A stretch of DNA of 64,000 bases from an uncultured Pseudobdellovibrionaceae bacterium (lineage in GTDB: Bacteria > Pseudomonadota > Alphaproteobacteria > Micavibrionales > Micavibrionaceae), in contig CAZFPB010000002.1 in assembly GCA_964520985.1 (NCBI GenBank), forward strand, positions 150,115-214,114, in the 5' to 3' direction. This document shows, piece after piece, positions 13,071 through 33,143 of the stretch; position 1 is the stretch's first letter; each line of letters starts with the position of its first letter. The translations under genes and the position numbers were made by a program. Under the pieces are notes generated by a model. That model did not search any database, was not told where the DNA came from, and worked only from the letters and a program-made list of their open reading frames with translations.

Positions 13071-13099
13071 TTGACAAAGCACTAAATACAAAATAAGAT
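13071..13099 (+). promoter_or_regulatory. sigma70-like promoter (TTGACA-17-TAAGAT)
   Basis: TTGACA at 13071-76, a 17-nt spacer, then TAAGAT at 13094-99. Sits in an AT-rich gap ahead of a small ORF and the tRNA island. Confidence 0.45.
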
Positions 13100-13133
13100 G
13101 TGCAAACTTTTTACACAAACAGAGATTTTTGAA

Positions 13134-13232
13134 ATGAACGCAAACATAGCCATTATTAAGAACGCGAAGGCGGTGGTGAATAATACCACGAAGCGCGGGC
13201 AGGCTATGATTGGTGGTGGATGCAGCAACTAA
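13134..13232 (+). CDS. possible 32-aa peptide (MNANIAIIKNAKAVVNNTTKRGQAMIGGGCSN)
   Basis: Short ORF between the promoter at 13071 and the terminator at 13262. Below the 60-aa ORF-track cutoff, so found by reading. Confidence 0.25.
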   Translation: MNANIAIIKNAKAVVNNTTKRGQAMIGGGCSN

Positions 13233-13261
13233 AGCTGACAGAAACCGAAGAAAATCAAAAA

Positions 13262-13288
13262 CCTGGCCCTAAAAAGCCAGGTTTTTTC
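13262..13288 (+). terminator. rho-independent terminator
   Basis: CCTGGC-CCTAAAAA-GCCAGG hairpin followed by TTTTTTCG. Confidence 0.7.
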
Positions 13289-13541
13289 GTTTCTGGGATA
13301 TAAAAAATGAATAAAACAGAACAAGATCGACTGATAGCAGAAGCTAATATTCTTCTGGATCGAATAGAAGCAAATTTGCGTTTTATTGTTGAATCGATTC
13401 AGGAGCGTAAAAATGGATTTAGATGAAGTAGTTCGTAAAGCGATTGAGAAAATTGATAGCCTTACAGTTGACGAATTGGAACAAGCGTTAAACAAATACG
13501 GTTATTATCCTGAACGGAAGGATAACCAAGAATAAAGATTT

Positions 13542-13617
13542 GGGGCTAGGGACTGCAGGGGGTGGTCGTCTCACTTGCAATGAGAAAATCAGCGGGGTTC
13601 GATTCCCCGTAGCTCCA
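13542..13617 (+). tRNA. tRNA-Ala(TGC)-like
   Basis: Acceptor GGGGCTA/TAGCTCC with G3:U70 (Ala identity). Anticodon arm TCTCA-CTTGCAA-TGAGA. T-arm CGGGG-TTCGATT-CCCCG. D-loop atypical and variable region 7 nt, so moderate confidence. Confidence 0.5.
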
Positions 13618-13668
13618 CAAGTTAACCTTTAATGACGATAGTTGGTTATTAAAGGATAATGCATGTAT

Positions 13669-13757
13669 AGTAGAGTGGTGTAATGGTTGCACGCTAGGCT
13701 TATAACCTAGAAGCCCCAGATTAGGGCGTGGTGACGGGTTCGATTCCCTCCTCTACT
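13669..13757 (+). tRNA. tRNA-like element, degenerate (anticodon-arm-like CTAGG-CTTATAA-CCTAG, long extra arm)
   Basis: Acceptor-like AGTAGAG/CTCTACT, D-arm GTG-TAATGGTT-CAC, extra hairpin GCCC-CAGATTA-GGGC. The T-stem has only 3 clean bp. Possible pseudo-tRNA. Confidence 0.25.
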
Positions 13758-13767
13758 ACAGAACAAT

Positions 13768-13852
13768 AGTATTGTGGCCGAATGGGTAGGCAACAGCCTG
13801 ATAAGCTGTGTCAGTAATGACGAAGCTGGTTCGAGTCCAGTCAATACTACCA
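13768..13852 (+). tRNA. tRNA with Ile anticodon GAT and a long (type-II-like) variable arm; encoded CCA
   Basis: Acceptor AGTATTG/CAATACT + A + CCA. D GCC-GAATGGGTA-GGC. Anticodon arm ACAGC-CTGATAA-GCTGT. A 15-nt variable arm with hairpin GTCA-GTAA-TGAC. T GCTGG-TTCGAGT-CCAGT. 85 nt. Confidence 0.5.
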
Positions 13853-13865
13853 ATTAGATGGTAGA

Positions 13866-14192
13866 TTGTATATGTATGCACTACAGTACGCTGATTTTCG
13901 ACCCCGCCCATATAATGTGCGGGACATTATAGAAATAGTTATTGATTGGCCAGTGAAAGGATTTGGTTGGATAAGTGGCCAGTTAGATACCACATTAATG
14001 GAATTTTCTAGTGTTAGAGAGTTGTTTAACAAAATTGAAGATTTACCAGATCAATTTTGTTTTAACAGTGAACATTGTAGCGGATTTGTTCAAGGAAATA
14101 ATGTTACAATGCGATTAGGATTAAGCGCCAAAATATCTACGTCGAACGCATCATGGAAGGTAATGTTTGATGAAGTGTCACGACAAAAGTGA
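13866..14192 (+). CDS. hypothetical protein
   Basis: 108 aa ORF between tRNAs. Confidence 0.4.
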   Translation: MYMYALQYADFRPRPYNVRDIIEIVIDWPVKGFGWISGQLDTTLMEFSSVRELFNKIEDLPDQFCFNSEHCSGFVQGNNVTMRLGLSAKISTSNASWKVMFDEVSRQK

Positions 14193-14370
14193 TGAAGAAG
14201 TGATTGAGTTATCTCGTAGCTTGCAGTATGGTTGTCAACAGCAACGAGAGATGATAGCAGAAGCGAAGAGACGTGGAATATTTGATGGTGAACAACATTT
14301 GAGATTGAGTCCAATTGGACAGTTGCTTGAACATAATCCAAATATTGTTAATCGTAGAGTGTAGTTAAAT

Positions 14371-14445
14371 GGGGTGCTGGCGTAATGGCAGCGCACGAGA
14401 CTTTTAATCTCGCAGGTCTGGGTTCGAGTCCCAGGCGCCCCACCA
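14371..14445 (+). tRNA. tRNA-Lys(TTT), CCA encoded
   Basis: Acceptor GGGGTGC/GCGCCCC, D GCG-TAATGGCA-GCGC, anticodon arm CGAGA-CTTTTAA-TCTCG, T CTGGG-TTCGAGT-CCCAG, ACCA 3' end. Confidence 0.85.
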
Positions 14446-14462
14446 AATAGCTTGAGGTATGT

Positions 14463-14768
14463 ATGTTTATAGATATCCGTAAAGCTAATAAGATTGTTGT
14501 TACACAACATGCAAAGCAGCGTGCTTATCAACGTGCTAAGTTGTTTATGTTTCAACATGAATTAGCAAATATACATATCTTTTTGCAGAATGATTTTTTA
14601 TCGTCTTCTGTAGATATGAAATTTGTAGTGGTGCCGTTCTACAAGAACAAGTTGGAAACTAAGTACGGTAAAGGAAGTTTTATTAGCCATTCCAAGTTGT
14701 TTAAGTACATGGCAATGTGTGACAATGATAGGATAGTTATCCGTTCAGTTGCATACATAGGAAATTAG
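14463..14768 (+). CDS. hypothetical protein
   Basis: 101 aa ORF with RBS GAGG. Confidence 0.4.
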   Translation: MFIDIRKANKIVVTQHAKQRAYQRAKLFMFQHELANIHIFLQNDFLSSSVDMKFVVVPFYKNKLETKYGKGSFISHSKLFKYMAMCDNDRIVIRSVAYIGN

Positions 14769-14775
14769 TTACAAT

Positions 14776-14852
14776 GCTCGATTGAAGCCGAATGGGAAGG
14801 CACGATCCTTACAAGGTCGGACGCGGTGGTTCGATTCCACCATCGAGCACCA
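14776..14852 (+). tRNA. tRNA-Val(TAC), CCA encoded
   Basis: Acceptor GCTCGAT/ATCGAGC, anticodon arm CGATC-CTTACAA-GGTCG, T GGTGG-TTCGATT-CCACC, ACCA. Confidence 0.85.
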
Positions 14853-14869
14853 AGTTTTGAGATGGTTTC

Positions 14870-15133
14870 ATGACCCTTGATGAATTATTAGATACAGAAA
14901 TACGTGGTGGTAGATACTGGTTTAAGAATTCAGGGAATGGAACAGTTCGCAAGTTTTTAACCTTGCGATCGTTGCTAGACCGAAATGGAACGTACAACAT
15001 ACAATTTGATTGTACTAAGTATACGGGCACTGTTATTTGTAACGATGCTGAAAATGGTCTAGTTGTTGTACAAATGCTTCATAATGAACATATGAGGTAT
15101 GGGTTCAAGTGGCCATTTAATAAAGCTCAGTAA
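14870..15133 (+). CDS. hypothetical protein
   Basis: 87 aa; its stop codon lies inside the 5' end of the next tRNA. Confidence 0.4.
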   Translation: MTLDELLDTEIRGGRYWFKNSGNGTVRKFLTLRSLLDRNGTYNIQFDCTKYTGTVICNDAENGLVVVQMLHNEHMRYGFKWPFNKAQ

Positions 15134-15199
15134 ACTTTGACGGTGAAGCCTTGCCTTGTAAGCAAGCGGAAGACAGTTCGAATCTGTCACTGAGCTCCA
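15125..15199 (+). tRNA. tRNA-Thr(TGT), CCA encoded
   Basis: Acceptor GCTCAGT/ACTGAGC, anticodon arm CTTGC-CTTGTAA-GCAAG, T GACAG-TTCGAAT-CTGTC, TCCA end. Confidence 0.85.
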
Positions 15200-15215
15200 A
15201 ACAAGAGTTGATTGT

Positions 15216-15419
15216 ATGAAAAATATAAATGATGGTGAGTGGTATCCATGTGCATGTATGGGACCGACAGGTGATGATCCTTACTGTCGTTGTGAGATGA
15301 GACGCAGAGGATTAACTCCAACACCACTGTGGACACCTGAAGCAAGAGAAGAATTGAAAAAAGCACTTCAACGAGTGATGGAAATAGAAGATGAAATGTT
15401 AAATCAGTCAAAGGACTGA
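15216..15419 (+). CDS. hypothetical small Cys-containing protein
   Basis: 67 aa with CACMGPTGDDPYCRCE. Confidence 0.4.
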   Translation: MKNINDGEWYPCACMGPTGDDPYCRCEMRRRGLTPTPLWTPEAREELKKALQRVMEIEDEMLNQSKD

Positions 15420-15428
15420 TTTAACAAT

Positions 15429-15499
15429 AGGTCTGTCGTCTAATGGCAAGACACACCCCTGATTAGGGTGGAACTCAGGTTCGAGTCCTGACTGACCTA
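15429..15499 (+). tRNA. tRNA-Ile(GAT)-like variant (U at position 37, one acceptor mismatch)
   Basis: Anticodon arm CACCC-CTGATTA-GGGTG is nearly identical to the canonical Ile tRNA at 18021, except a T at position 37. D GTCT-AATGGCA-AGAC; T TCAGG-TTCGAGT-CCTGA. Confidence 0.5.
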
Positions 15500-15504
15500 C
15501 GAAG

Positions 15505-15580
15505 GTGAGACCATCGTTCAACGGAGAGGATACCGGTCGCGGAGATCGGAGATCTAGGTTCGAATCCTAGTGGAATTACC
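15505..15580 (+). other. tRNA-like fragment with a canonical T-arm and tandem GGAGATC GGAGATC, no acceptor pairing found
   Basis: CTAGG-TTCGAAT-CCTAG T-arm at 15554-15570; no complementary 5' acceptor partner within about 80 nt upstream. Confidence 0.25.
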
Positions 15581-15634
15581 TGTGGATAAATAAACAATTG
15601 TTGTGCTCTCCATAAATACTCTATTTGGAGTATT

Positions 15635-16192
15635 TTGAAGTTGTGGAAGTGCAAACATTGTAATATTGAGTTTAATTTTGATACCAAATCTGAAAAAGCA
15701 AACCATACCAGATGGTGTCATTTAAATCCAAAAAGAAGTCAATTTATAGAAGAGAATAAGCAAAGAGCTGTCGAACGCAACATTCAACGATTTGGGTTGT
15801 TTGTTGATATTGACGTTGAATGTTCTACTTGTGAATGTACATTCACAATAACAGAGCGATCCAAACTCTTTGACAGTAATAAAAAGTATTATTGTAGTAA
15901 AACGTGTTCTAATAGTGTTGGTGGTGCAGCAAACGCAGCTAGATTAGAAGCGAATGGTGAATTTAAAAGTTACACAGTAATATGTTTTAAACATCATAAA
16001 AGATGTTGTATACTGTGTGGCTTTGATAAAATAGTTGAAGTGCATCATTATGATTATAACCATCATAATAATGTACCTGAGAATTTAGTTCCTTTATGTC
16101 CAAATCATCATCAAATGGTGCATTCGAAATATAGGAGCGAGATAATTTCTGACGTCGATGCATATGTTAAGAAATTTAAAGATGGGCTGTAG
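15635..16192 (+). CDS. HNH endonuclease with N-terminal zinc-finger-like region
   Basis: C-terminal CILCGF...VEVHHYD...NLVPLCPNHHQMVH is an HNH motif. N-terminal CKHCN...HTRWCH. Embedded in the tRNA island. Confidence 0.65.
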   Translation: MKLWKCKHCNIEFNFDTKSEKANHTRWCHLNPKRSQFIEENKQRAVERNIQRFGLFVDIDVECSTCECTFTITERSKLFDSNKKYYCSKTCSNSVGGAANAARLEANGEFKSYTVICFKHHKRCCILCGFDKIVEVHHYDYNHHNNVPENLVPLCPNHHQMVHSKYRSEIISDVDAYVKKFKDGL

Positions 16193-16255
16193 GTGTTGAT
16201 GGGGGCACGCGAGCTTTGCACGCTTGAGGGAACGGTTCGATTCCGTTACGGTCCA
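16184..16255 (+). tRNA. tRNA-Ala(TGC)
   Basis: Acceptor GGGCTGT/ACGGTCC with G3:U70. D GTGT-TGATGGGG-GCAC. Anticodon arm CGAGC-TTTGCAC-GCTTG. T AACGG-TTCGATT-CCGTT. Overlaps the HNH stop codon. Confidence 0.65.
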
Positions 16256-16272
16256 CAAATAGAGGATTAAAC

Positions 16273-16509
16273 ATGCTTGTACGTGTGAAAGACCTTAAAA
16301 AGTTTGACGGTTATGTGTTTGGTGCTGATTGCTTCTTAAAGAATTGGCCTGAAATTAAAACAACTGGTATTGAAGTAAAACTGATTGGTGAGTTTTACTA
16401 TGTAATGGTAGATGGAAAACAAGCAGGTCTTTCTGCTTTTTTCAGTGAAGAAGAAATGCAATACCTCGAACAGGTTCCTCCTGATGTGTCGAGTCTAGTA
16501 AAGGATTAA
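16273..16509 (+). CDS. hypothetical small protein
   Basis: 78 aa with RBS GAGGA. Confidence 0.4.
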   Translation: MLVRVKDLKKFDGYVFGADCFLKNWPEIKTTGIEVKLIGEFYYVMVDGKQAGLSAFFSEEEMQYLEQVPPDVSSLVKD

Positions 16510-16511
16510 GT

Positions 16512-16835
16512 GTGAAGATATTGTTTGTGTGCAGACAGGGAAGAATGAGAAGTAGGACAGCTGCCCATGTCTTTAAAAGCTACACAGTTGACACGCAGTA
16601 TTGTGGTACAGATAGTGACAGTCATGTTCCATGTACACAGGATATGATTGATAAATGTGACATAATTGTGTGTATGGAAGATCAAAATTATTGGGAGATA
16701 GTTCAAAATTTTGATCTGAATGGAAGACCAATTAAGACGCTAGGTCTTCCAGACGAATATGATTACATGGATGATGGATTGATTCAGTTGTTAAAGATCG
16801 CTCTATCAAAGAATGGAATTTTAAATTTTTTGTAG
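16512..16835 (+). CDS. hypothetical protein
   Basis: 107 aa, Cys-rich. Confidence 0.4.
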   Translation: MKILFVCRQGRMRSRTAAHVFKSYTVDTQYCGTDSDSHVPCTQDMIDKCDIIVCMEDQNYWEIVQNFDLNGRPIKTLGLPDEYDYMDDGLIQLLKIALSKNGILNFL

Positions 16836-16839
16836 TAAT

Positions 16840-16912
16840 TATTAGTTGGTGTAGTGGGAGCACAATGACCCGCAGAGGGTTAGAGGGAATGGTTCGAATC
16901 CATTACTAATAG
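16840..16912 (+). tRNA. tRNA, anticodon unresolved (non-canonical anticodon loop)
   Basis: Acceptor TATTAGT/ACTAATA, D GTGT-AGTGGGA-GCAC, T AATGG-TTCGAAT-CCATT. Best anticodon stem is TGACC/GGTTA with loop CGCAGAG, which lacks U33. Confidence 0.45.
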
Positions 16913-16998
16913 CGTAAGCGACGTTGCTTAGTAGAATCTGTAATCCTCTCTTTGGACGGGACCAGGCGGGGGCGATCGCAAAGGTTTGGAGTTGTGTT

Positions 16999-17226
16999 AT
17001 GAAAATGTGGTATGTTCTTGTTGAAATGAAAAATTCTACAAGACCGTTGATTGATACTGTTGTGACTGATGATACTGTTGAACAATCACAATTAGAAGAG
17101 TACGTGAATGCGATGTACGCAAAATATAACATGGCTTCGCATTTTTTAAGTGTGAAAAGCGTGCATGATATTGGACCTTGCTATACAATTATGGGTACAG
17201 AAGTTACATTTATGGATGAAAATTAA
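16999..17226 (+). CDS. hypothetical small protein
   Basis: Start moved to ATG 16999 to clear the upstream tRNA. Confidence 0.35.
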   Translation: MKMWYVLVEMKNSTRPLIDTVVTDDTVEQSQLEEYVNAMYAKYNMASHFLSVKSVHDIGPCYTIMGTEVTFMDEN

Positions 17227-17234
17227 GAAATAAT

Positions 17235-17324
17235 TCCGCTCGGGCTGGCTAGGTGAAGGCTTTCGGCTGTTAACCGAATGACTCCTTAAATGGAGGCGAG
17301 GTTCGAATCCTCGGGGCGGAGCCA
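17235..17324 (+). tRNA. tRNA with Asn anticodon GTT and a long (type-II-like) variable arm; CCA encoded
   Basis: Acceptor TCCGCTC/GGGCGGA + G + CCA. Anticodon arm TTCGG-CTGTTAA-CCGAA. An 18-nt variable arm with hairpin CTCC-TTAAAT-GGAG. T CGAGG-TTCGAAT-CCTCG. 90 nt. Confidence 0.5.
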
Positions 17325-17343
17325 AATTAAAGAGAATAGAAGT

Positions 17344-17775
17344 ATGAGAGGTGATAGAACAAAACAGAAGGGAACGCTGGGTGAGCTTTGTGTTATGTTT
17401 GAAGCAGCGAAACGTGGATATAATGTTCTAGTGCCTTGTGGTGATTATTCTCAATACGATTTAGTGGTAGAACGTAACGGAAAGTTTGAACGAGTTCAGG
17501 TTAAATCTGTAACTCCAAAAGATGGAAAGTTGTGTGTTCATACTAAAAGTATGACTTTTGACAAAGAACAAAGTACAAATAATCGAAGTAAACAAGTAAA
17601 ATATTCTGCAGGTGATTTTGATTGGTTAGCTGCGTATGATTTAGAAAATGATGAAGTATATTTCATTCCGGCAAATTTAGTAGTTAATCGAACAAGTTTT
17701 GCATTGCGTTTATCTGATACAAAGAATGGTCAAATAGCAAATGTTCGATTTGCTAAAGACTTTCAAAATTGGTAA
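17344..17775 (+). CDS. PD-(D/E)XK-like nuclease family protein (putative)
   Basis: Start moved to ATG 17344 to clear the tRNA. GDYSQYDLVVERNGKFERVQVKS has a D...(D/E)xK arrangement typical of restriction-endonuclease-fold nucleases. Confidence 0.4.
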   Translation: MRGDRTKQKGTLGELCVMFEAAKRGYNVLVPCGDYSQYDLVVERNGKFERVQVKSVTPKDGKLCVHTKSMTFDKEQSTNNRSKQVKYSAGDFDWLAAYDLENDEVYFIPANLVVNRTSFALRLSDTKNGQIANVRFAKDFQNW

Positions 17776-17785
17776 ACATTAGTAT

Positions 17786-17927
17786 TGGCATGTAGCTCAG
17801 CGGTAGAGCTGGTGACTGTTTTGGTTGTAATTCAACCATTATCGTTTCTATGAGACGATAAGAATTGATGTATAAACATCACAGATTAATCACCCGGTCG
17901 TAGGTTCGATCCCTACCATGCCAGCCA
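17786..17927 (+). tRNA. interrupted tRNA gene: intact 5' and 3' halves separated by a 76-nt three-hairpin insert in the anticodon loop; CCA encoded
   Basis: 5' half is TGGCATG-TA-GCTC-AGCGGTA-GAGC-T-GGTGA. 3' half is TCACC-CGGTC-GTAGG-TTCGATC-CCTAC-CATGCCA-G-CCA. Acceptor pairs 7/7. Anticodon stem GGTGA/TCACC encloses an insert with hairpins TGGTTG/CAACCA, TTATCGT/ACGATAA and GATGT/ACATC. Confidence 0.55.
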
Positions 17928-18020
17928 TTGTGAATATTGGGCTCTTGACCCAATGTGGTAAGGTTGCTGAGATGGGGCAACTAGTGTCTAGCGAATTGGA
18001 AGGGGGCGAAGACACAAACT

Positions 18021-18092
18021 AGCGGATTAGCTCAGTGGTAGAGCACACCCCTGATAAGGGTGGGGCCATGGGATCGTAACCCATATCCGCTA
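18021..18092 (+). tRNA. tRNA-Ile(GAT)
   Basis: Acceptor AGCGGAT/ATCCGCT, D GCTC-AGTGGTA-GAGC, anticodon arm CACCC-CTGATAA-GGGTG, T ATGGG-ATCGTAA-CCCAT (A at position 54). Confidence 0.8.
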
Positions 18093-18094
18093 CA

Positions 18095-18198
18095 GAATCG
18101 TAAGTGGGCAGGACTAGGGTTCGATTCCCTTTAGGTATGGTACTGAACATGAGGCGCTGAAAGCCTCAGCCTTCAAGGTTCGATTTCTTGACGATTCT
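18095..18198 (+). ncRNA. elongated tRNA-like RNA (104 nt): terminal acceptor stem, two T-arm-like hairpins and an anticodon-arm-like hairpin
   Basis: Ends GAATCGT/ACGATTC pair 7/7. 3' proximal T-arm CAAGG-TTCGATT-TCTTG. Internal AGGG-TTCGATT-CCCT. Hairpin TGAGGC-GCTGAAA-GCCTCA. Confidence 0.4.
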
Positions 18199-18221
18199 TC
18201 AACTAACGTAGAATAAAAAAT

Positions 18222-18530
18222 ATGAATCGTCTGCAATGGTTATTATCCAAATTAGCTGAAGAAGCTAGTGAAGTCAGTCAAATCTCCCTTAAAACATCTC
18301 AATTTGGTCCGGATGAAGTCATGCCTGGCCAGCCGTTAACAAACTTTCAACGTACTCATGGTGAGTTGAATGATTTGTTGGCTATTGTTGAAGTGCTTAA
18401 TGATGAGTATAATTTTGATTTTAAATGTGATCTAAATTCATTAGATCGCAACGCTATTGAATTAAAGAAACAGAAGCTTGAAAAATACTATCGTTATTCT
18501 GTGAGCTTAGGATTGGTTAAAGATGAGTGA
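18222..18530 (+). CDS. hypothetical protein
   Basis: 102 aa ORF. Confidence 0.4.
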   Translation: MNRLQWLLSKLAEEASEVSQISLKTSQFGPDEVMPGQPLTNFQRTHGELNDLLAIVEVLNDEYNFDFKCDLNSLDRNAIELKKQKLEKYYRYSVSLGLVKDE

Positions 18531-19080
18531 CATCATTAAACTGTATGGTAAAGATATTGATATTTCCAATCTGAAACTGTCTGATATCACAAATGCATTT
18601 GTTGATAATATTTGGACAGAACAAGAATTAGAAAAAATGTGTCAAACTCATCGTAGCCAACAAAATACTTTTGTATATTTTGAAAGTGATGAATTATATC
18701 ATGCAATGTTCGAAATATTGGAAACGATGAACGTTGATATTCAGCATATTAAAAATAAGCTAATTGCTAAACTAGCGCCTCATATCTATCTTAACGATTG
18801 CGATTATTCGATACAAGATGTAACGGTGCCTGCATATTCGGATGGTGAATCGTGTTTAACAGCTACAATTGTAAGATATGTTGTAAAAGTGGATACGGTA
18901 AATGACGTGCGGGGCCAAATTAAATCGAAGCTCAAACAAGCTATTAAACGACGTGACCAAAAACAACGCGAAATAAAAGAAGACCTTGAAACATTGAATC
19001 GTCTGCAGCAAAAATATGGCGCTCAACTTGATACCCTTTTACAAAAGGAACAGTCAGATGAAGGCTATCCGTATTCATAA
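18523..19080 (+). CDS. hypothetical protein
   Basis: 185 aa; ATGA overlap with the upstream ORF. Confidence 0.45.
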   Translation: MSDIIKLYGKDIDISNLKLSDITNAFVDNIWTEQELEKMCQTHRSQQNTFVYFESDELYHAMFEILETMNVDIQHIKNKLIAKLAPHIYLNDCDYSIQDVTVPAYSDGESCLTATIVRYVVKVDTVNDVRGQIKSKLKQAIKRRDQKQREIKEDLETLNRLQQKYGAQLDTLLQKEQSDEGYPYS

Positions 19081-19085
19081 TATAA

Positions 19086-19161
19086 GCACAGTCGTATCGG
19101 GTGGTCCGAGACAACGAAGGCCAAGTTGGATAAATTGGTTCGATTCCAATACTGTGCGCCA
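19086..19161 (+). tRNA. tRNA, anticodon unresolved; CCA encoded
   Basis: Acceptor GCACAGT/ACTGTGC + G + CCA and T ATTGG-TTCGATT-CCAAT are canonical. The D/anticodon region GTATCGGGTGGTCCGAGACAACGAAGGCCAAG does not give a canonical 7-nt U33 anticodon loop. Confidence 0.5.
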
Positions 19162-19178
19162 ATAATAAAAGGTGTAAA

Positions 19179-19541
19179 ATGCAAGATCAATTCATCCGTG
19201 GATATACATGTGTATCTAAAACGTGGTACGGTTCATATGTTTTAGAAAATATGGGACCTGATATTTGTGAAATGTTTATCGTAGGTATGTACAACGCAAA
19301 CACAATTAAACCTTTAGGTGAATTCTCAATAATTTGGTTTAAGCACCAAGGTAAGGTAATACCAAAAGTAGAAATGATCGACAGCGGTTGGAAAGCATTT
19401 CATACGTCAGGTATATTAAGTGCATTAGTTCAAGCTGAACATGTTGGAAATACATCACCTGATGATATTGAACAGTTGTTATTGAATTTGAATTTCATTA
19501 ATGTGACTCAACAAGAACAATCATCAGACCTAGACTACTGA
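19179..19541 (+). CDS. hypothetical protein
   Basis: 120 aa ORF. Confidence 0.4.
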   Translation: MQDQFIRGYTCVSKTWYGSYVLENMGPDICEMFIVGMYNANTIKPLGEFSIIWFKHQGKVIPKVEMIDSGWKAFHTSGILSALVQAEHVGNTSPDDIEQLLLNLNFINVTQQEQSSDLDY

Positions 19542-19548
19542 GGACGCA

Positions 19549-20001
19549 ATGATGCATTTGGTTTATAAAAAAATTGTCATGAAAGTGGCACAAGCCTTGA
19601 TTAATGATTTTTCAATGGTGTCATTCGAAGATGCTCACAAATATTTGATTCCTGAAGATCAGATAGATGACATGAAATATGTTGTTACTGAAACGCAGAT
19701 TCAAAAATTTGTGGATGCAATAACAGAAACAGTTGTTAATATGTGTGCAACAGAATTGGATGAGATTCAGTGGCACGTGGATAACGGAACACAGAAACCG
19801 TATAAGAATGCAGTTGATCTTGCGCAACAGATACGTCGGAAATTCTTGGTGGATGATTGGATTTCTGTTGATGACCGGTTGCCCTCCGATGGTGATTTTA
19901 TCGAAGGCAAGTCAAAAGATGGTACATGGACTGAAACGTGGGATAGTGATGAACCTCTTGGGTTGATGACTCATTGGCGATTGGTCGAACAGGAACAATA
20001 A
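19549..20001 (+). CDS. hypothetical protein
   Basis: 150 aa. Confidence 0.4.
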   Translation: MMHLVYKKIVMKVAQALINDFSMVSFEDAHKYLIPEDQIDDMKYVVTETQIQKFVDAITETVVNMCATELDEIQWHVDNGTQKPYKNAVDLAQQIRRKFLVDDWISVDDRLPSDGDFIEGKSKDGTWTETWDSDEPLGLMTHWRLVEQEQ

Positions 20002-20372
20002 TGGGCTGTTTTGTCTACAATGTAATTGGCGTTACTGATGATTATGAATGTCGTGATCATGAAATAATTAAATCGTTTTTTAATGAACAGAAAGCAATTG
20101 ATTTTTGTAATGAATTACGAAAAGATTTGCCAATTCTTAGTGCTATTTCTAATGGATTTATAAGCTACATGGCGAATTGGTGGGAAGGTAATCCGTATTC
20201 ATCAGTTGTGAATAATGTAGATGATTTTGATGAAAAGTATCTTAAAACAGTAACCGACTACGCAAACCGATTTACAACTGATCAAGAGATAGTTGATTAT
20301 TTTGTGCAAAACGCCCATCAGGATTTTCACAGAAAATCGTACATAGTCAGATCAATATGGGTGGACGATTAA
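20001..20372 (+). CDS. hypothetical protein
   Basis: Start at the TAATG overlap at 20001. Confidence 0.4.
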   Translation: MGCFVYNVIGVTDDYECRDHEIIKSFFNEQKAIDFCNELRKDLPILSAISNGFISYMANWWEGNPYSSVVNNVDDFDEKYLKTVTDYANRFTTDQEIVDYFVQNAHQDFHRKSYIVRSIWVDD

Positions 20373-20651
20373 ATGATAAAACCAAAACCAGATTATCAAT
20401 ACCTGTACATTACGTGTAAGGGAAAAGGTGGTGTTTATAAACTGATTTGTGCAGCTGATGGTGCTGGAACAAGTCGTGGAACCACTAAAATAGTATATCA
20501 AGACGCATTCGATGACTTGCGCTTTTTCGTTCGTGATTCCGAAGATTTTTATGAGCGAATGGAACTTATTCCTCGAGAGCAAATAGAACAAGCAATTCAA
20601 ACAGAATTTGATAATAGAGAACAAGATGGACAATCGAATATTAAGTATTAA
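20373..20651 (+). CDS. hypothetical protein
   Basis: 92 aa. Confidence 0.4.
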   Translation: MIKPKPDYQYLYITCKGKGGVYKLICAADGAGTSRGTTKIVYQDAFDDLRFFVRDSEDFYERMELIPREQIEQAIQTEFDNREQDGQSNIKY

Positions 20652-21021
20652 CGGGAAAGGTGATCAGTTCCTACAAGAAGTATTGACCTTAGCCTTTAAG
20701 CAACAGGGCTACATTCAAAAATGTGATGGTTGGGCTGAAAATGAAGCAGGCCTAATTCTGCTGTGGAGTGCAGAAGATAAGGAAACTCATAAGTTTCCAG
20801 GTGGCGGACTAACGGCTGAACAAGTAACACCAATTGTTAGTGCTTGGTTGAAAAACAACGACCCCAATAAGTTTGACTTGGGCGATTGGGAACACGATCT
20901 TAGTCATGACGGCCACAACTCTGTTGGTTTTCGAGTGTATTGTGAAGATTGGGGTCATGCTGGTGGATTTCATTGCGCAATTTGTGCAGTGAAACCAGTT
21001 TATCTGTGGCATGGAAAATAA
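20608..21021 (+). CDS. hypothetical protein
   Basis: 137 aa with a C-terminal His/Cys cluster; overlaps the upstream ORF, so the true start may be an internal ATG. Confidence 0.35.
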   Translation: MIIENKMDNRILSINGKGDQFLQEVLTLAFKQQGYIQKCDGWAENEAGLILLWSAEDKETHKFPGGGLTAEQVTPIVSAWLKNNDPNKFDLGDWEHDLSHDGHNSVGFRVYCEDWGHAGGFHCAICAVKPVYLWHGK

Positions 21022-21023
21022 TT

Positions 21024-21344
21024 ATGAGCCAGTTATCTTTGTTGGAAAATCCACACATATCAATTGAAGACAGATTGGAAATTGCAAAAGGTGCTGTAGA
21101 GTACTTTGAACAACTGAGTACGTGTTGGAAGACAGCGTATGATAATTCTAAACAAGAGTTAGAAGACTATCAAACGTTTGTAATCGGCACATTAGCACAA
21201 CTTGGTGCTGTTACTAAAAAAGCTGATGGTTCTCCTCGTTTTCATTTGGATATTTTAATGGATCCGAAAGGACTATTAATGGTTGAACCGGGTGAACAGT
21301 TAATTGCTGCAAAAGATGTTGACGAATCATCAAACGATGAGTAA
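21024..21344 (+). CDS. hypothetical protein
   Basis: Start moved to ATG 21024. Confidence 0.4.
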   Translation: MSQLSLLENPHISIEDRLEIAKGAVEYFEQLSTCWKTAYDNSKQELEDYQTFVIGTLAQLGAVTKKADGSPRFHLDILMDPKGLLMVEPGEQLIAAKDVDESSNDE

Positions 21345-21377
21345 GATTACTAAATAACACTTCGGTGTTATTTAAAA

Positions 21378-21452
21378 GCTCAGTAAACTTTGATGGTGAA
21401 GCCTTGTCTTGTAAGCAAGCGGAAGGCGGTTCGAATCCGCCACTGAGCTCCA
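21378..21452 (+). tRNA. tRNA-Thr(TGT), second copy; CCA encoded
   Basis: Near-identical to 15125-15199 in acceptor, D and anticodon arms (CTTGT-CTTGTAA-GCAAG). T-arm differs (GGCGG-TTCGAAT-CCGCC). Confidence 0.85.
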
Positions 21453-21464
21453 GAGATTTAACCT

Positions 21465-21725
21465 ATGAAAATGCATAAAATAGAATTGTACGTTTTGGAT
21501 TTTGAAGATTATGGGATTGAAGAGTGTACTTCGATATTAGAACACATCGATCCTCACGGAGCTATAGTAAAAGTTAATCCAATTGGTTCTGTTGAGATCG
21601 GTGAATGGCATGATGGCCATGAATTAAATTTCCGTAGTACGGATTATAATAAGTATTTCGCAAAAGCAGATGATGATCGTCGAGTTCAATGGTATCATCG
21701 TTTTTGCAAAAATTCTGAACAATAG
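21465..21725 (+). CDS. hypothetical protein
   Basis: 86 aa. Confidence 0.4.
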   Translation: MKMHKIELYVLDFEDYGIEECTSILEHIDPHGAIVKVNPIGSVEIGEWHDGHELNFRSTDYNKYFAKADDDRRVQWYHRFCKNSEQ

Positions 21726-21726
21726 T

Positions 21727-21856
21727 AAGTGACGATAATCGGATCGTAAAAATAACAGATAGGTTGGTGGTAGGTTCCAATGAGCTTAGTGCTTACGTCC
21801 TCCATATAATGCCTGATGCACTGTTATCGGATAAGGTTCAATTCCTTACGCTTACT
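21727..21856 (+). ncRNA. elongated or interrupted tRNA-like locus (about 130 nt)
   Basis: 5' GTAAGTG pairs with 3' CGCTTAC (one GU) next to a canonical T-arm TAAGG-TTCAATT-CCTTA. D-arm-like CGAT-AATCGG-ATCG. A 6-bp helix TAACAG/CTGTTA encloses about 60 nt. Confidence 0.3.
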
Positions 21857-21993
21857 CGAAGATGTTGCGTAGTGAACGGTTACTTCGACTGTTAATCGAG
21901 AAGAGAAGGTTCGAATCCTTCCATCCCGTAGGGATGTAGTGTAATGGTAGCACTCTAAAATCTCCGTTTGCGTTTTTATCTCATCTTTTTTAT

Positions 21994-22077
21994 AAGTCAG
22001 TAGACTAGCAAGTGTCGCCCTAGTCAGATAGCTCGAAAGAGCTGGAGTTCCAGTAGGTTCGAATCCTACCTGGCTTG
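21994..22077 (+). tRNA. tRNA-like, type-II length (84 nt), anticodon unresolved
   Basis: Acceptor AAGTCAG/CTGGCTT (one GU), T GTAGG-TTCGAAT-CCTAC. Internal 6-bp GACTAG/CTAGTC helix and AGCTC-GAAA-GAGCT hairpin. Confidence 0.3.
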
Positions 22078-22079
22078 CT

Positions 22080-22199
22080 AACGTAATGGTCTAGCGGATA
22101 AGACACTCGTACGAGGGTTGGAAGCTGTTCGATTCAGCTGAATGCACGGTGACCGTAATTCCGCAACGAGAAAGGTACGTTCGAATCGTACTTACGTTT
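22080..22199 (+). ncRNA. elongated tRNA-like RNA (120 nt) with a terminal acceptor stem and two T-arm-like hairpins
   Basis: Ends AACGTAA/TTACGTT pair 7/7. 3' T-arm GTACG-TTCGAAT-CGTAC. Internal AGCTG-TTCGATT-CAGCT. D-loop-like TAGCGGATAA. Confidence 0.35.
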
Positions 22200-22219
22200 C
22201 ATTTATTAAGGATTACATA

Positions 22220-22807
22220 ATGACAGATGTAATTGTTCATAATGCTTATGGCAACATTGACGTATATCCAGCAACTTTAGAACACGCCCTCAAATTAGTT
22301 AATCTGCAAGTGTTTAGTGGTGATTATTCGAATGCTTGTGAATTCTTTGAAAATATAAAAAACAAAATAAACATTAGTGGAGATATGGTATGCAGAGCAA
22401 TACACGACGTGTGTATGTTACCTGTTGATACTCCATCAAAGTATCTAAATGCATTGACAGATGGTAAGTATCGTACCATTACAGCAGATATTAAGAATGA
22501 AACAATAATATATTTGTGGAATCATCAAATTACCATAAAACATCCAACATATAGTGGAATGTTTGGCAGGTTAACTATACTGCAACCTCAACGATCCTTA
22601 ACCTATTTGAAACAGTTTGATCAACAAACAGATTGTTATTTTTATTATCCAGATCAATTAGACCGATATTCGCAATTGCGGTGTATTATTGAAGGAAGAT
22701 GGAAAGAAACAGCTAGTGAAATTAGCAAAATTAAATACATTGTTGAATTTCTGAATGAACATTATTCAAACGATAGTAAATTTTACATTACATCAATACA
22801 GGAATAG
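22220..22807 (+). CDS. hypothetical protein
   Basis: Start moved to ATG 22220 (MTDVIVHNAYG), downstream of the tRNA-like element. Confidence 0.45.
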   Translation: MTDVIVHNAYGNIDVYPATLEHALKLVNLQVFSGDYSNACEFFENIKNKINISGDMVCRAIHDVCMLPVDTPSKYLNALTDGKYRTITADIKNETIIYLWNHQITIKHPTYSGMFGRLTILQPQRSLTYLKQFDQQTDCYFYYPDQLDRYSQLRCIIEGRWKETASEISKIKYIVEFLNEHYSNDSKFYITSIQE

Positions 22808-22809
22808 TT

Positions 22810-23034
22810 ATGTCTTTACAAGATAAATTAAACGAACTTGAACAATTCATTCGTGCTAAAGCTGAAACAGAAACATGGGACGATCAGTTTATTGATAAAG
22901 ATGGTAATTTCACAGATGTTTGTGTATTTGACTTATCGGGTGGTAATGTAGACGATGCATACGAAGGTGGAGCACGTGCAGGCGAATCACGCTTTGCATG
23001 TGAATTACTAGAACGTTTCTTCAAACCAGAGTAA
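22810..23034 (+). CDS. hypothetical small acidic protein
   Basis: 74 aa. Confidence 0.4.
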   Translation: MSLQDKLNELEQFIRAKAETETWDDQFIDKDGNFTDVCVFDLSGGNVDDAYEGGARAGESRFACELLERFFKPE

Positions 23035-23039
23035 CAGTT

Positions 23040-23222
23040 ATGGATATTAGTGTTCAACTAGTAGAAGCACTTGCACAAGAGGCAGGGCTTGACCAATTAT
23101 GTGGTTGGGATGATGATAACAATCCTAAAGATTACTACGAATGTTGGCCGGAAGATCTGCAGAGATTTGCAGTGCTATTGATTGAACATTATAAGCTAAA
23201 AACTGTTGACCTTCCTGCCTAA
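23040..23222 (+). CDS. hypothetical small acidic protein
   Basis: 60 aa. Confidence 0.35.
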   Translation: MDISVQLVEALAQEAGLDQLCGWDDDNNPKDYYECWPEDLQRFAVLLIEHYKLKTVDLPA

Positions 23223-23241
23223 ATAGGTTATAGTGTTATAA

Positions 23242-23496
23242 ATGGTAGTAACTGCAATGGGTTCTAACTGTATGAAAACACTGGATGAGTACAAGCGTCT
23301 TATTGGTTATACGGTTAGAAAGACTTCTCGTAAACCGTTTAAGTCTGGGACCAAGGTAAATACTGTTGCAGGAGTGGTGGTTCATCCGTTTCTGGGTGTA
23401 CCGAGTTTTACGTTTGTTGAGGATGATTCTTATGTCGAATGCCGCCGGTGTCGTTCAGTTGAACAGCAACCAAGAAAAATACTGGATTCCGAGTGA
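23242..23496 (+). CDS. hypothetical protein
   Basis: 84 aa. Confidence 0.35.
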   Translation: MVVTAMGSNCMKTLDEYKRLIGYTVRKTSRKPFKSGTKVNTVAGVVVHPFLGVPSFTFVEDDSYVECRRCRSVEQQPRKILDSE

Positions 23497-23650
23497 CGGT
23501 GATGCACCGCATGCTATTTGCTTTTCTGGATCGGAAGCATTTGGTTTTGGTGCAAATTACATCGACTCGTTTGACGAAAAAGGTAAACGACTGTGTACGT
23601 ACACGCTAAATAGTGATGGTGAGACGTATACCTGTCATCTCATCAACTAA
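23441..23650 (+). CDS. hypothetical protein
   Basis: Start at ATG 23441 with RBS GAGGA; overlaps the upstream ORF by 56 nt in another frame. Confidence 0.35.
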   Translation, partial: AAGVVQLNSNQEKYWIPSDGDAPHAICFSGSEAFGFGANYIDSFDEKGKRLCTYTLNSDGETYTCHLIN

Positions 23651-23656
23651 CTAGTT

Positions 23657-23729
23657 GCCGCACAAACTTTGATTGGTGAAGCCCTTCTTGGTAAGAAGGC
23701 AGAAGACAGTTCGAATCTGTCGTGTGGCA
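23657..23729 (+). tRNA. tRNA-Thr(GGT)
   Basis: Acceptor GCCGCAC/GTGTGGC, D-arm shared with the other Thr genes, anticodon arm CCTTC-TTGGTAA-GAAGG, T GACAG-TTCGAAT-CTGTC. Confidence 0.8.
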
Positions 23730-23734
23730 CAAAT

Positions 23735-23809
23735 GCTCAGTAAACTTTGCTGGTGAAGCCCGCTCTCGTAAAGCGGTTGAAGACAGTTCGAATCTGTCAC
23801 TGAGCTCCA
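23735..23809 (+). tRNA. tRNA-Thr(CGT), CCA encoded
   Basis: Acceptor GCTCAGT/ACTGAGC, anticodon arm CCGCT-CTCGTAA-AGCGG, T GACAG-TTCGAAT-CTGTC, TCCA. Confidence 0.8.
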
Positions 23810-32755: not shown

Positions 32756-33142
32756 ATGACAATCACTGTACCTATTTTGCCGGTTGATACTCCTACGATT
32801 AACAATCGGATTTATACAACTGAAGCTGTGGAACAAGCATTACAGAAAGTGAAAGAGCCAGTATTTGGTGGATTTGTTAATGATTATGAAGGCATTGATA
32901 TCGCTATAGAAAATTATGCATTTCGTGCATCAAATCTTAGAATTCACGATGGAAATGTTATTGCTGAAATTGAAATTCTTAACACACCGAAAGGTTTGGT
33001 ATTAGAAGATTTGCTGAATAGTGTTTGTCCAATGAGATTTGCAGCAGCAGGTACATGTAGAATTGAGAATCAACAGATAACCGAATACGAAATCCGTACT
33101 GTACAATTAGTTGCTGAGGGCGTATTTGAAGAAGGAAATTAA
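32756..33142 (+). CDS. hypothetical protein
   Basis: 128 aa. Confidence 0.4.
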   Translation: MTITVPILPVDTPTINNRIYTTEAVEQALQKVKEPVFGGFVNDYEGIDIAIENYAFRASNLRIHDGNVIAEIEILNTPKGLVLEDLLNSVCPMRFAAAGTCRIENQQITEYEIRTVQLVAEGVFEEGN

Positions 33143-33143
33143 T

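Follow-up and report, generated by a model that had tools for sequence, protein, structure and literature searches.

Clusters of tRNA genes in phages such as T4, T5 and the jumbo phages are encoded on a single strand, with small open reading frames (ORFs) and homing-type endonuclease genes between them, and their tRNAs match an A/U-rich codon usage. Jumbo phages combine tRNAs with RNA ligases and CCA-adding enzymes, and a subset of them adds a TROVE protein with a tRNA-like partner (PMC7824862). Changes in the anticodon loops of phage tRNAs have been predicted to protect them from anticodon nucleases (van den Berg et al. 2023, PMC10264068), and RNAs of the YrlA type, which mimic tRNA, adjoin Ro60 genes in bacteria and in 22 phages (Chen et al. 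2014, PMC4201824). Annotation of phage tRNA islands commonly proceeds one gene at a time and goes no further. Here, we analysed positions 13071 to 23809 of a 64-kb stretch of DNA (the window, contig CAZFPB010000002.1, to which all coordinates refer), where a first-pass annotation had described a T4-like phage tRNA island with small ORFs between the genes and a high proportion of atypical members. The island, its small ORFs and the abundance of atypical members were upheld. As judged from its sequence, the region is a tRNA island of an uncultivated, AT-rich phage whose nearest protein relatives are in jumbo phages, and it probably combines a decoding supplement for this phage with a module of RNA repair and tRNA mimicry. 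The atypical members are best explained together with the Ro60, RNA-ligase and CCA-enzyme genes of the same window, a context that the first-pass annotation had missed.

The island has the general features of phage tRNA clusters listed above and, as in jumbo phages, RNA ligases and a CCA-adding enzyme are co-encoded. It differs from them in its narrow range (Ile, Thr, Asn, Lys, Ala, Val and two atypical species) with several paralogues per anticodon, in that about a third of its RNA genes are non-canonical, and in the presence of a Y RNA inside it. The RNA ligases and the paralogues altered at U37, at G33 and, in an array with a similar gene set (L248, below), at C33 recall the tRNAs predicted to evade anticodon nucleases (PMC10264068). 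However, the island has more than point substitutions: some of its tRNAs have extra variable arms, one has a 67-nt insert, and some of its RNAs have lost the anticodon loop entirely. Phage tRNA islands and phage YrlA RNAs are known kinds of elements, and the variants in this island appear to go beyond the descriptions that we found: a Y RNA embedded in the island and carrying an anticodon-arm look-alike, a family of tRNA-Ile(UAU) with a pseudo-anticodon in the variable arm, and tRNAs that bear an insert or G33.

The Y RNA and the putative RNA-repair genes of the window

Beside the tRNAs that it named, the first-pass annotation had counted about ten further tRNA-like genes. Further genes are indeed present, but they do not form one class: they comprise eight tRNA genes, one RNA that we assign to the YrlA-type Y RNAs, and four or five tRNA-shaped RNAs that have no usable anticodon loop. 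Low-scoring 'tRNA-like' calls can thus conceal other classes of RNA, in this case a Y RNA below the standard Rfam thresholds, and it is this RNA that would tie the island to a repair module made of the following genes.

21858-21988, + strand: predicted YrlA-type Y RNA (Rfam YrlA match, minimum-free-energy (MFE) fold, and covariance model R1 described below)
34795-36312, + strand: Ro60/Rsr orthologue (Pfam TROVE E 1.3e-23, VWA_2 E 5.6e-7; PHROG 850 'RNA-binding protein')
33111-34166, + strand: RNA ligase, Rnl-type (PHROG 24030 E 9e-142; Pfam RNA_ligase E 3.5e-30)
43161-44348, + strand: second RNA ligase, with OB-fold and RNA_ligase domains (Pfam PHA02142 and RNA_ligase; PHROG 968)
7265-8353, + strand: CCA-adding enzyme, i.e., tRNA nucleotidyltransferase (Pfam PolyA_pol head, E 8e-22, and PolyA_pol_RNAbd)

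The lower stem of the Y RNA (GAAGAUG/CAUCUUU) leads to an internal loop with UUGCGUA and GUUUUUAUCU, an 8-bp stem (GUGAACGG/CCGUUUGC) and the element UUAC. There follow a hairpin resembling an anticodon arm (UUCGA-CUGUUAA-UCGAG), a T-arm, a closed acceptor stem (CAUCCC-GUA-GGGAUG) and a D-arm. The MFE and centroid folds of 21857-21992 give the same architecture atop two stacked terminal helices. A relaxed Rfam scan matched YrlA (RF02553) at 21873-21973 (31.4 bits, E 6e-5 on a 551-nt search), with an alignment that is almost perfect in the T-arm, the closed acceptor stem, the UA linker and the D-arm and poor in the Ro-side stem. The described YrlA RNAs (RF02553; PMC4201824; structure in bioRxiv 10.1101/312249) have the same order of T-arm, loop-closed acceptor stem, UA and D-arm, the same long stem made from the 5' and 3' ends, a YUAY element (here UUAC) before the 'V' hairpin, and a location on the same strand as a Ro60 gene (TROVE and VWA); phage examples were already known. 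The structural definition of Chen et al. 2014, a T-arm, closed acceptor stem and D-arm carried by a long stem of the two ends, describes this RNA in the Rfam alignment, in the folds and in the alignment to R1.

Similar RNAs are found in the Ro-linked loci of other phages, mostly beside Ro and often in tandem. They have in common an 8-bp helix that covaries freely (e.g., GTGAACGG/CCGTTTGC, GTCGAGAG/CTCTCGAC, GTATAGGG/CTCTATAC and AGCAAGTG/CACTTGCT), an invariant UACUUC, the module of T-arm, closed stem and D-arm, and a U-rich 3' tail ending in AUCUC or similar. Our alignment comprised 11 such RNAs of other phage contigs and left out the window; in nine cases a Ro gene is the immediate neighbour. 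Across their five helices, 88.4% of the cells are paired and 23 of the 29 pairs have changed on both sides. None of 500 shuffles reached this pairing, and slid controls gave 37-50%. The covariance model R1, built from these 11 RNAs with the window left out, scores the window at 21864-21983 with 97.1 bits (E about 1e-23, under a rough calibration) over model positions 1-129, which is its full length. The next-best match in the window (26 bits) is the anticodon arm and T-arm of an ordinary tRNA. Of 12 Ro-linked phage contigs, 8 have a match scoring more than 70 bits, whereas the highest score among 129 phage tRNA loci that had not been selected by Ro is 49 bits.

Several observations speak against assigning this RNA to the YrlA type and, with it, against the role that we propose. 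The Rfam score is below the gathering score of 69 bits. The RNA lies inside a tRNA island, 12.8 kb upstream of the Ro gene on the same strand, well beyond the distance of about 4 kb used by Chen et al. 2014. Elsewhere, the Y RNA is directly beside Ro in the majority of the phage contigs that we examined; in seven Ro-anchored contigs it is within about 2.6 kb, mostly within 0.6 kb. Finally, its 5' motif is GUUGCGUAG and not the published GNCGAAN0-1G, the proposed contact with Ro. The phage family has G-U-K-S-C-R-W-A followed by G at this place (e.g., GUGCCGUAG, GUUGCGAAG), which is similar but not identical to the published motif. In a syntenic relative of the phage (IMG/VR contig IMGVR_UViG_3300036715_001783, loci L031 and L042), the Y RNAs are about 8.5-9.4 kb upstream of Ro.

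The 'V' hairpin also sets this RNA apart. It is a full look-alike of an anticodon arm, with a 5-bp stem and the loop CUGUUAA, whereas the YrlA of Salmonella has no anticodon loop. A tRNA-Asn of L031 has almost the same anticodon arm, and other members of the family have comparable loops (CUCGUAA, CUUUUAA, CUAUUAA). It has been proposed that YrlA originated from dimeric tRNAs (bioRxiv 10.1101/312249). An RNA whose 5' two-thirds correspond to an anticodon arm, variable loop and T-arm and whose 3' part corresponds to the D-arm of the next tRNA is what this model predicts, as is an intact anticodon-arm look-alike amid tandem tRNA genes.

A shorter RNA of L248, at about 1668-1730 between two tRNA-Ile genes, has GUUGCGUAG followed by UUACUUC, an 8-bp stem and the 3' tail GAUUUUAACUC without a tRNA-like domain. 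By its sequence, it may be a YrlB-like minimal Y RNA.

The Ro60 orthologue (505 aa) combines TROVE and VWA domains, and its tblastn matches are to annotated Ro-like and TROVE phage proteins. The Y RNA most likely partners this protein: its tRNA-shaped module, in which the acceptor stem is closed, sits on a long stem that contains a conserved internal loop, and the phage Ro60 would bind the RNA. The first RNA ligase is 64% identical to a protein of Ralstonia phage RsoM2USA and has weaker HNH endonuclease matches at its N-terminus. The CCA-adding enzyme, which the first-pass annotation had correctly placed upstream of the island (at 5 kb), has the Pfam domains of such enzymes and is 40-55% identical to annotated phage CCA tRNA nucleotidyltransferases (tblastn). 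Together with the two ligases and the CCA-adding enzyme, the Y RNA and Ro60 would make up a module of RNA repair and quality control.

tRNA genes, isoacceptors and codon usage

We searched for tRNA genes with ARAGORN, in default and in intron and relaxed modes, and with the Rfam tRNA model (RF00005, gathering score 29 bits). Combined, they give 16 tRNA genes between 13542 and 23809, all on the + strand. ARAGORN in default mode accounts for 15 of them and makes a single call in the remaining 53.7 kb of the window (42409-42481). It misses 17786-17924, which has an insert of about 70 nt and is one of the 14 genes that reach the Rfam gathering score (34.3-65.3 bits). Two genes, Thr-GGT at 23657 and Ala-TGC at 13542, have the support of ARAGORN only. 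The eight tRNAs named by the first-pass annotation (Lys-TTT 14371, Val-TAC 14776, Thr-TGT 15125 and 21378, Thr-GGT 23657, Thr-CGT 23735, Ala-TGC 16184 and Ile-GAT 18021) were all recovered with the same coordinates and anticodons. It had also noted an encoded CCA in many of the further tRNA-like genes. The CCA end is encoded by 8 of the 16 genes and by the tRNA-like gene 19086-19161; the phage CCA-adding enzyme would complete the half that lack it. About ten of the genes resemble ordinary tRNAs, and eight of these are as follows.

13542-13618, + strand: tRNA-Ala(UGC), G3:U70, atypical D-arm, no CCA (ARAGORN; in Rfam only a 25-bit match of the tmRNA clan)
16184-16256, + strand: tRNA-Ala(UGC), G3:U70 (ARAGORN; Rfam 41.8 bits)
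14371-14445, + strand: tRNA-Lys(UUU), canonical, CCA (ARAGORN; Rfam 65.3 bits)
14776-14852, + strand: tRNA-Val(UAC), CCA (ARAGORN; Rfam 37.2 bits)
15125-15199, + strand: tRNA-Thr(UGU), phage lineage with A8/U14 and a distinctive D-arm, CCA (ARAGORN; Rfam 41.6 bits)
21378-21452, + strand: tRNA-Thr(UGU), second copy with a different T-arm (ARAGORN; Rfam 41.3 bits)
23657-23730, + strand: tRNA-Thr(GGU), no CCA, D-loop with one base more than those of the other Thr genes (ARAGORN only)
23735-23809, + strand: tRNA-Thr(CGU), CCA (ARAGORN; Rfam 37.5 bits)

To class a gene as a decoder we required its anticodon loop to have 7 nt, U33 and a purine as residue 37. Eleven genes have such a loop. The others are 15429 (U37), 15507 and 16840 (G33), 17786 (a 67-nt interruption) and 19086 (a 9-nt loop), and the RNAs 21725, 21994 and 22080 have no anticodon loop whatever. 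About ten of the 16 tRNAs would be fit to decode: Lys-UUU, Val-UAC, both Ala-UGC, both Thr-UGU, Thr-GGU, Thr-CGU, Ile-GAU at 18021 and probably Ile-UAU. The G3:U70 pair that had been read in Ala 16184 (acceptor stem GGGCTGT/ACGGTCC) is there, and Ala 13542 has it too (GGGGCTA/TAGCTCC).

The four Thr genes form a lineage with A8/U14 in place of U8/A14 and with G21, consistent with the Rfam alignment, and with a mismatched first pair of the D-stem. The first-pass annotation had taken their shared D-arm as a sign of duplication within the phage followed by anticodon switching. The D-arm motif AAACTTTGNNGGTGAAG is exact in three of the four, and Thr-GGT has an extra base in the D-loop (AAACTTTGATTGGTGAAG). 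However, 19 other viral contigs, most of them unrelated, have the motif AAACTTTGNNGGTGAAGCC in genes for tRNA-Thr or tRNA-Lys(CTT), and the acceptor, anticodon and T stems of these genes covary freely. The D-arm is therefore a trait of a widespread phage tRNA lineage and gives by itself no evidence for duplication in this phage. A simple anticodon switch does not fit either, since the anticodon stems of the TGT and CGT genes are wholly different (CTTGC and CCGCT). The two Thr-TGT genes do have near-identical 5' halves and different T-arms, as had been noted; three Thr genes have the acceptor stem GCTCAGT/ACTGAGC, three have the T-arm GACAG/CTGTC, and Thr-CGU is identical to 15125 in both acceptor stem and T-arm. 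The Thr genes thus look like a mosaic, which suggests recombination, duplication or concerted evolution within the lineage and not a one-base change of the anticodon.

Codon usage was computed from 77 genes of the window, i.e., from the phage side alone. The GC content is 0.38, and the tRNAs that are well formed read the preferred codons ending in A or U (AAA, ACA, GCA, GTA, ATT/ATC, ATA, AAT/AAC): AAA makes up 0.77 of the Lys codons, and the shares of ACA, GCA, GTA and ATT are 0.35, 0.39, 0.29 and 0.63. These tRNAs, if expressed, processed and charged, would supplement or replace those of the host at heavily used A/U-rich codons during infection. The set is similar elsewhere. The syntenic relative encodes, in L042, Ala-TGC, Lys-TTT, Thr-GGT, Val-TAC, three Asn-GTT, Thr-TGT, Met and Arg-TCT. 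L248, a single 1.85-kb contig found by scanning metagenomes for the Thr acceptor stem and D-arm, holds a compact array of two Asn, two Lys, two Ala, Thr-GGT, Thr-TGT, Val and two Ile-GAT, and it carries no information on the odd RNAs; both its Ile-GAU genes have C33. Ala-UGC, Lys-UUU, Val-UAC, Thr-UGU, Thr-GGU and Asn-GUU are common to the two arrays, so this core set is conserved and not an accident of recent duplication. Most of the island tRNAs read ANN codons, the class with t6A37, which includes known targets of anticodon nucleases (Lys and Asn); we take this as a lead only.

The match to preferred codons and the recurrence of the isoacceptors in two other arrays, one of them in the syntenic relative, would also be expected if the island did nothing but compensate for codon usage, with the atypical members and the Y RNA as irrelevant passengers. 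We consider this unlikely. Paralogues with the same anticodon (three Ile-GAU, two Thr-UGU, two Ala-UGC, two Asn-GUU) differ precisely at the anticodon loop or the variable arm, and Thr-CGU, 'Pro-CGG' and 'Leu-CAG' would serve little-used codons (0.19, 0.14 and 0.12). Furthermore, RNA damage and its repair are suggested by the genes for Ro, the ligases and the CCA-adding enzyme that the phage also encodes. Two further facts tell against codon compensation and also against the reading that we prefer: four Thr and four Ile genes are not explained by codon usage, and GAA, CAA, TTA and GAT are abundant, yet the window has no tRNAs for them.

Altered tRNAs and tRNA-shaped RNAs

The remaining eight tRNA genes and five tRNA-like RNAs depart from the canonical form in different ways.

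13669-13759, + strand: tRNA-Ile(UAU), 91 nt, variable arm GCCC-CAGAUUA-GGGC (ARAGORN; Rfam 50.9 bits)
13768-13852, + strand: tRNA-Ile(GAU), 85 nt, extra variable-arm hairpin GUCA-GUAA-UGAC, CCA (ARAGORN; Rfam 54.9 bits)
15429-15500, + strand: tRNA-Ile(GAU), U37 (loop CUGAUUA), U6.U67 mismatch (ARAGORN; Rfam 54.1 bits)
15507-15580, + strand: atypical tRNA 'Pro(CGG)', loop CGCGGAG with G33, two acceptor mismatches (ARAGORN; Rfam 34.3 bits)
16840-16913, + strand: atypical tRNA 'Leu(CAG)', loop CGCAGAG with G33 (ARAGORN; Rfam 38.1 bits)
17235-17324, + strand: tRNA-Asn(GUU), 90 nt, U1-A72, G73, CCA, extra variable-arm hairpin (ARAGORN; Rfam 34.8 bits)
17786-17927, + strand: body of a tRNA-Asn(GUU), U1-A72, G73, CCA, with an insert inside the anticodon (Rfam 51.1 bits; ARAGORN intron mode)
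18021-18093, + strand: tRNA-Ile(GAU), T-loop AUCGUAA (ARAGORN; Rfam 64.3 bits)
18095-18200, + strand: tRNA-shaped RNA, 7-bp terminal stem GAAUCGU/ACGAUUC, T-arm, anticodon-like hairpin (custom scan, ARAGORN relaxed mode, folds)
19086-19161, + strand: tRNA-like gene, 7-bp acceptor stem, T-arm, G73, CCA (sequence reading)
21725-21855, + strand: tRNA-shaped RNA, acceptor-like GUAAGUG/CGCUUAC, D-like hairpin, T-arm (custom scan, folds; z-score -1.9)
21994-22078, + strand: tRNA-shaped RNA, GAAA tetraloop capping the anticodon stem, no anticodon (ARAGORN relaxed mode, folds; z-score -1.8)
22080-22198, + strand: tRNA-shaped RNA, canonical acceptor stem, D-arm (loop AGCGGAUA), T-arm (custom scan, ARAGORN relaxed mode, fold)

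Several of these paralogues are altered at the sites that tRNA-targeting enzymes read: U37 in 15429, G33 in two genes, variable-arm hairpins in 13768 and 17235, and, in Asn-GUU 17786, a 67-nt insert that pairs with the anticodon. They may serve as decoys or as substitutes that resist nucleases, or they may be outcomes of the same arms race, and an anti-defence role of this kind is what we infer for them. A conserved isoacceptor set with paralogues diversified in the anticodon loop offers candidates for phage tRNAs that have been selected for resistance to host anticodon nucleases.

Three of the tRNAs (13669, 13768 and 17235) have a base-paired variable arm, as do the class II tRNAs and the allo-tRNAs, which join a long variable arm to anticodons of other amino acids (Mukai et al. 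2017, PMC5389517). They are not of class II, as their anticodons are those of Ile (UAU, GAU) and Asn (GUU), not of Leu, Ser or Tyr. The acceptor and T stems have the normal 7 and 5 pairs, unlike 8/4 or 9/3; the Asn genes have U1-A72 and G73, and the Ile genes have A73 where G73 is typical of Ser. Extra variable-arm hairpins occur sporadically in class I phage tRNAs (Asn, Lys, Thr, Arg, Gly, Cys and Trp), and long-arm tRNA-Asn were found in four other contigs, each with U1-A72 and G73.

The tRNA-Ile(UAU) belongs to a larger family, which we defined by the anticodon loop CUUAUAA, the loop CAGAUUA on a variable-arm stem of 3-5 bp, and a T-arm of the normal kind, all of which 13669-13759 has. At least 120 viral loci (L058-L177) match the search pattern CTTATAA...CAGATTA...GGTTCGA, for which we estimate about 10-15 matches by chance, and the matches listed include at least 105 distinct tRNA-shaped sequences. 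All stems covary among 27 diverse members, including all four pairs of the variable stem. The loop is fixed by the search pattern, so its invariance is not independent of it; likewise, the 65 of 72 Ile(TAT) genes with a CAGAUUA loop in the loci at hand come from a sample selected by that pattern. Members occur in the cultured cyanophages S-SRM01 and S-SKS1 of Synechococcus, where they are not annotated (e.g., MW015081.1, 32944-33031), and in about 49 of 185,579 bacterial species genomes, mostly metagenome-assembled genomes of Acidobacteriota; otherwise, the family is mostly viral.

A tRNA-Ile(UAU), 'tRNA-Ile3', is mentioned for Mycoplasma mobile, Bifidobacterium and Neorickettsia (bioRxiv 10.1101/614032). 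As in the island gene, its UAU anticodon reads AUA without lysidine. The island family differs in being mostly viral and in having a long variable arm with a conserved loop. The bacterial tRNA-Ile(UAU) of the literature is not known to have other than an ordinary short variable region. We found no description of a tRNA-Ile(UAU) with a long variable arm in the open-access papers searched, where absence is not proof. Judging from these sequences, the family is widespread, large, conserved and apparently undescribed.

The centre of CAGAUUA is GAU flanked by C and A, as in the anticodon loop of tRNA-Ile(GAU), from which it differs at the positions equivalent to 33 and 37. This likeness raises a testable question on how AUA-reading tRNAs are recognised. 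The variable loop might stand in as an identity or recognition element that is read by isoleucyl-tRNA synthetase or by some other enzyme specific to tRNA-Ile. Such a function would be part of a broader scenario, to which we give little credence, in which the island goes beyond a decoding supplement and is a set of tRNA mimics working with Ro60, the RNA ligases and the CCA-adding enzyme. The Y RNA with its anticodon arm, the tRNA bodies without anticodon, the tRNA-Asn masked by its insert and the tRNA-Ile(UAU) would then all be parts of this set. If so, phages would have evolved a second way of specifying tRNA identity, away from the anticodon, and tRNA-shaped decoys against host defences that target tRNAs.

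The insert of 17786-17927 spans 67 nt (17821-17887) within positions 34-37 (in the Rfam alignment, a 70-nt insertion in the anticodon loop). It folds into three hairpins and pairs with the anticodon, with a fold z-score of -5.1 and none of 200 shuffles as stable. Exactly between the long-arm tRNA-Asn and this gene lies that of an endonuclease.

17345-17775, + strand: PD-(D/E)XK endonuclease (Pfam PDDEXK_5 E 6e-29; start codon picked from the sequence)
17928-18020, + strand: structured spacer of 93 nt with three hairpins (z-score -2.9, 0 of 200 shuffles as stable; no match to an Rfam family)

The family PDDEXK_5 includes an endonuclease encoded in a group I intron of a tRNA, and a link between the endonuclease and the insert is possible. 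A known ribozyme or group I intron was considered for the insert and rejected: it is too short (such cores have at least 200 nt), and it matches no Rfam family, with no intron or ribozyme hit at E up to 10.

Inserts also occur in another Ro-encoding phage contig (L035), where at least five otherwise canonical tRNAs have 35-65 nt directly 3' of the anticodon loop (Leu-TAG 11866-12002, Ser-GCT 12010-12138, Ile-GAT 18477-18586, Arg-TCT 18593-18699 and Trp-CCA 19786-19916). These inserts and that of the window could be true introns, cut by an endonuclease and with their exons joined by a phage RNA ligase. The tRNA body is intact on both sides, excision of 17821-17887 restores the canonical loop CUGUUAA of an Asn-type tRNA, two RNA ligases are encoded by the phage, and two of the L035 inserts have the same 3' end, CGAAGAG. 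Against this, Pfam scans of 30 window proteins revealed no splicing endonuclease, although no dedicated search was made. The insert of the window lies within 34-37 and not at the canonical 37/38, its fold has no evident bulge-helix-bulge motif, and its length and the Rfam result already set it apart from group I introns. In the open-access literature searched we found no paper on protein-spliced introns in phage tRNAs, which again is not proof of absence. True introns are thus very unlikely; they would imply a protein-dependent pathway of tRNA splicing in a bacterial virus.

The other departures affect single arms or the whole fold. The G33 loop of 15507 and 16840 has no counterpart among 1,342 tRNAs surveyed, and 16840 has an acceptor stem made entirely of A-U or G-U pairs and lacks a long variable arm. 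The Ile-GAU at 18021 has A54/U58 in place of the usual T54/A58; here, as with A8/U14 of the Thr lineage, the residues of a conserved tertiary pair appear to be exchanged. The gene at 19086-19161 has a 4-bp anticodon stem with a 9-nt loop and a weak match to tRNA-Sec (19.2 bits; z-score -0.6). The RNAs 18095, 21725, 21994 and 22080 keep a perfect 7-bp terminal stem and a T-arm. In 18095-18200, about 55 nt with a second T-arm-like hairpin replace the D-arm; in 21725-21855, a 7-bp stem with a 61-nt branched insert replaces the anticodon loop; and in 22080-22198, the anticodon stem CUCGU/ACGAG carries, in place of the loop, a 55-nt branched insert with a T-arm-like hairpin (z-score +0.3). Both 18095-18200 and 22080-22198 were considered as further YrlA-type RNAs and rejected, as their matches to R1 are partial and at most 18 bits.

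The RNAs without an anticodon loop, as far as their sequences indicate, cannot decode. With their acceptor stem and T-arm they may be either further tRNA mimics or decaying duplicates. More generally, the atypical members (the G33 tRNAs, the insert-bearing tRNA-Asn, the RNA with two T-arms and the anticodon-less RNAs) might be functionless pseudogenes in decay that arose in a fast-evolving region through duplication, recombination and the action of endonucleases, a view that we regard as possible, though not probable. In line with such an origin, an endonuclease gene sits between the two tRNA-Asn genes and the Thr paralogues are mosaic. Two results favour it at the expense of the function that we propose: a comparison of the odd elements with all fetched loci (blastn-short) gave T-arm matches only and no homologues, and the fold z-scores of most atypical RNAs (-1.9 to +0.9) are unremarkable, close to those of shuffled sequence. 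The z-scores are uninformative on function except for 17786-17927 and the spacer 17928-18020. Decay is harder to reconcile with acceptor stems, T-arms and any D-arms that are free of mismatches in 17786, 21725, 21994 and 22080, with the strong structure of the 67-nt insert, and with the insert-bearing tRNAs with intact bodies in other phage arrays, such as the five of L035. The tRNA-Asn with an extra hairpin recurs in four other contigs with U1-A72 and G73 in each. Finally, the Y RNA, the sole odd element that could be tested comparatively, proved to be a member of a conserved family.

Relatives of the phage and other features of the window

At the protein level, the closest matches come from jumbo phages that infect Ralstonia, Salicola, Caulobacter and Xanthomonas (RsoM2USA, SCTP-2, CcrBL9 and XaC1); the T4-like character that had been suggested for the region is not supported. 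By DNA, no cultured phage is close: a megablast search of the 11-kb region against 50,697 phage records gave only a 38-nt match in a tRNA-Ile. An exact-protein look-up found a sole match, the same phage in a Logan assembly. The protein at 18523-19080 had no relative among viral contigs, and that at 22220-22807 had none among metagenome contigs. The syntenic relative has a Ro protein 51% identical to that of the window and about 12 other proteins 27-57% identical in the same order; a second relative (L045) has a Ro protein 45% identical.

The upstream limit of the island had been set at a promoter.

13071-13099, + strand: sigma-70-like promoter match TTGACA-17-TAAGAT (10 of 12 positions)
13257-13286, + strand: hairpin resembling an intrinsic terminator (stem of 11-13 pairs followed by the T-run TTTTTTCGTTT)

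The promoter-like site exists, but a role as the promoter of the island is not supported, as the terminator-like hairpin stands between it and the first tRNA; the site is therefore only a loose boundary. Promoter-like sites are not enriched in the region, with 28 found and 38 expected from shuffles. Together, this site, the strongest promoter-like one, and the strong hairpin enclose about 190 nt immediately before the island, with a 44-codon ORF (13098-13292, + strand).

One small ORF of the island (16512-16835, + strand) has a marginal match to low-molecular-weight phosphatases (Pfam LMWPc, 23.7 bits for a cut-off of 23.2) and a CX5R-like motif; its product could be a candidate RNA-end-healing enzyme, on weak sequence evidence. 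The window also encodes a nicotinamide phosphoribosyltransferase (NAMPT; 790-2217, + strand) and a DDAH/amidinotransferase-like protein (41575-42396, + strand), which are auxiliary metabolic genes unrelated to the island, as well as an SPFH protein. The single tRNA outside the island (42409-42481, + strand; Rfam 56.9 bits) has the anticodon CTA, labelled 'Pyl' by ARAGORN, and would by its anticodon read amber codons. Among the stop codons of the 77 genes, TAG is the rarest (5, with 25 TGA and 47 TAA), and in the syntenic relative L042 has a tRNA-like gene with the anticodon TTA at 11406-11480.

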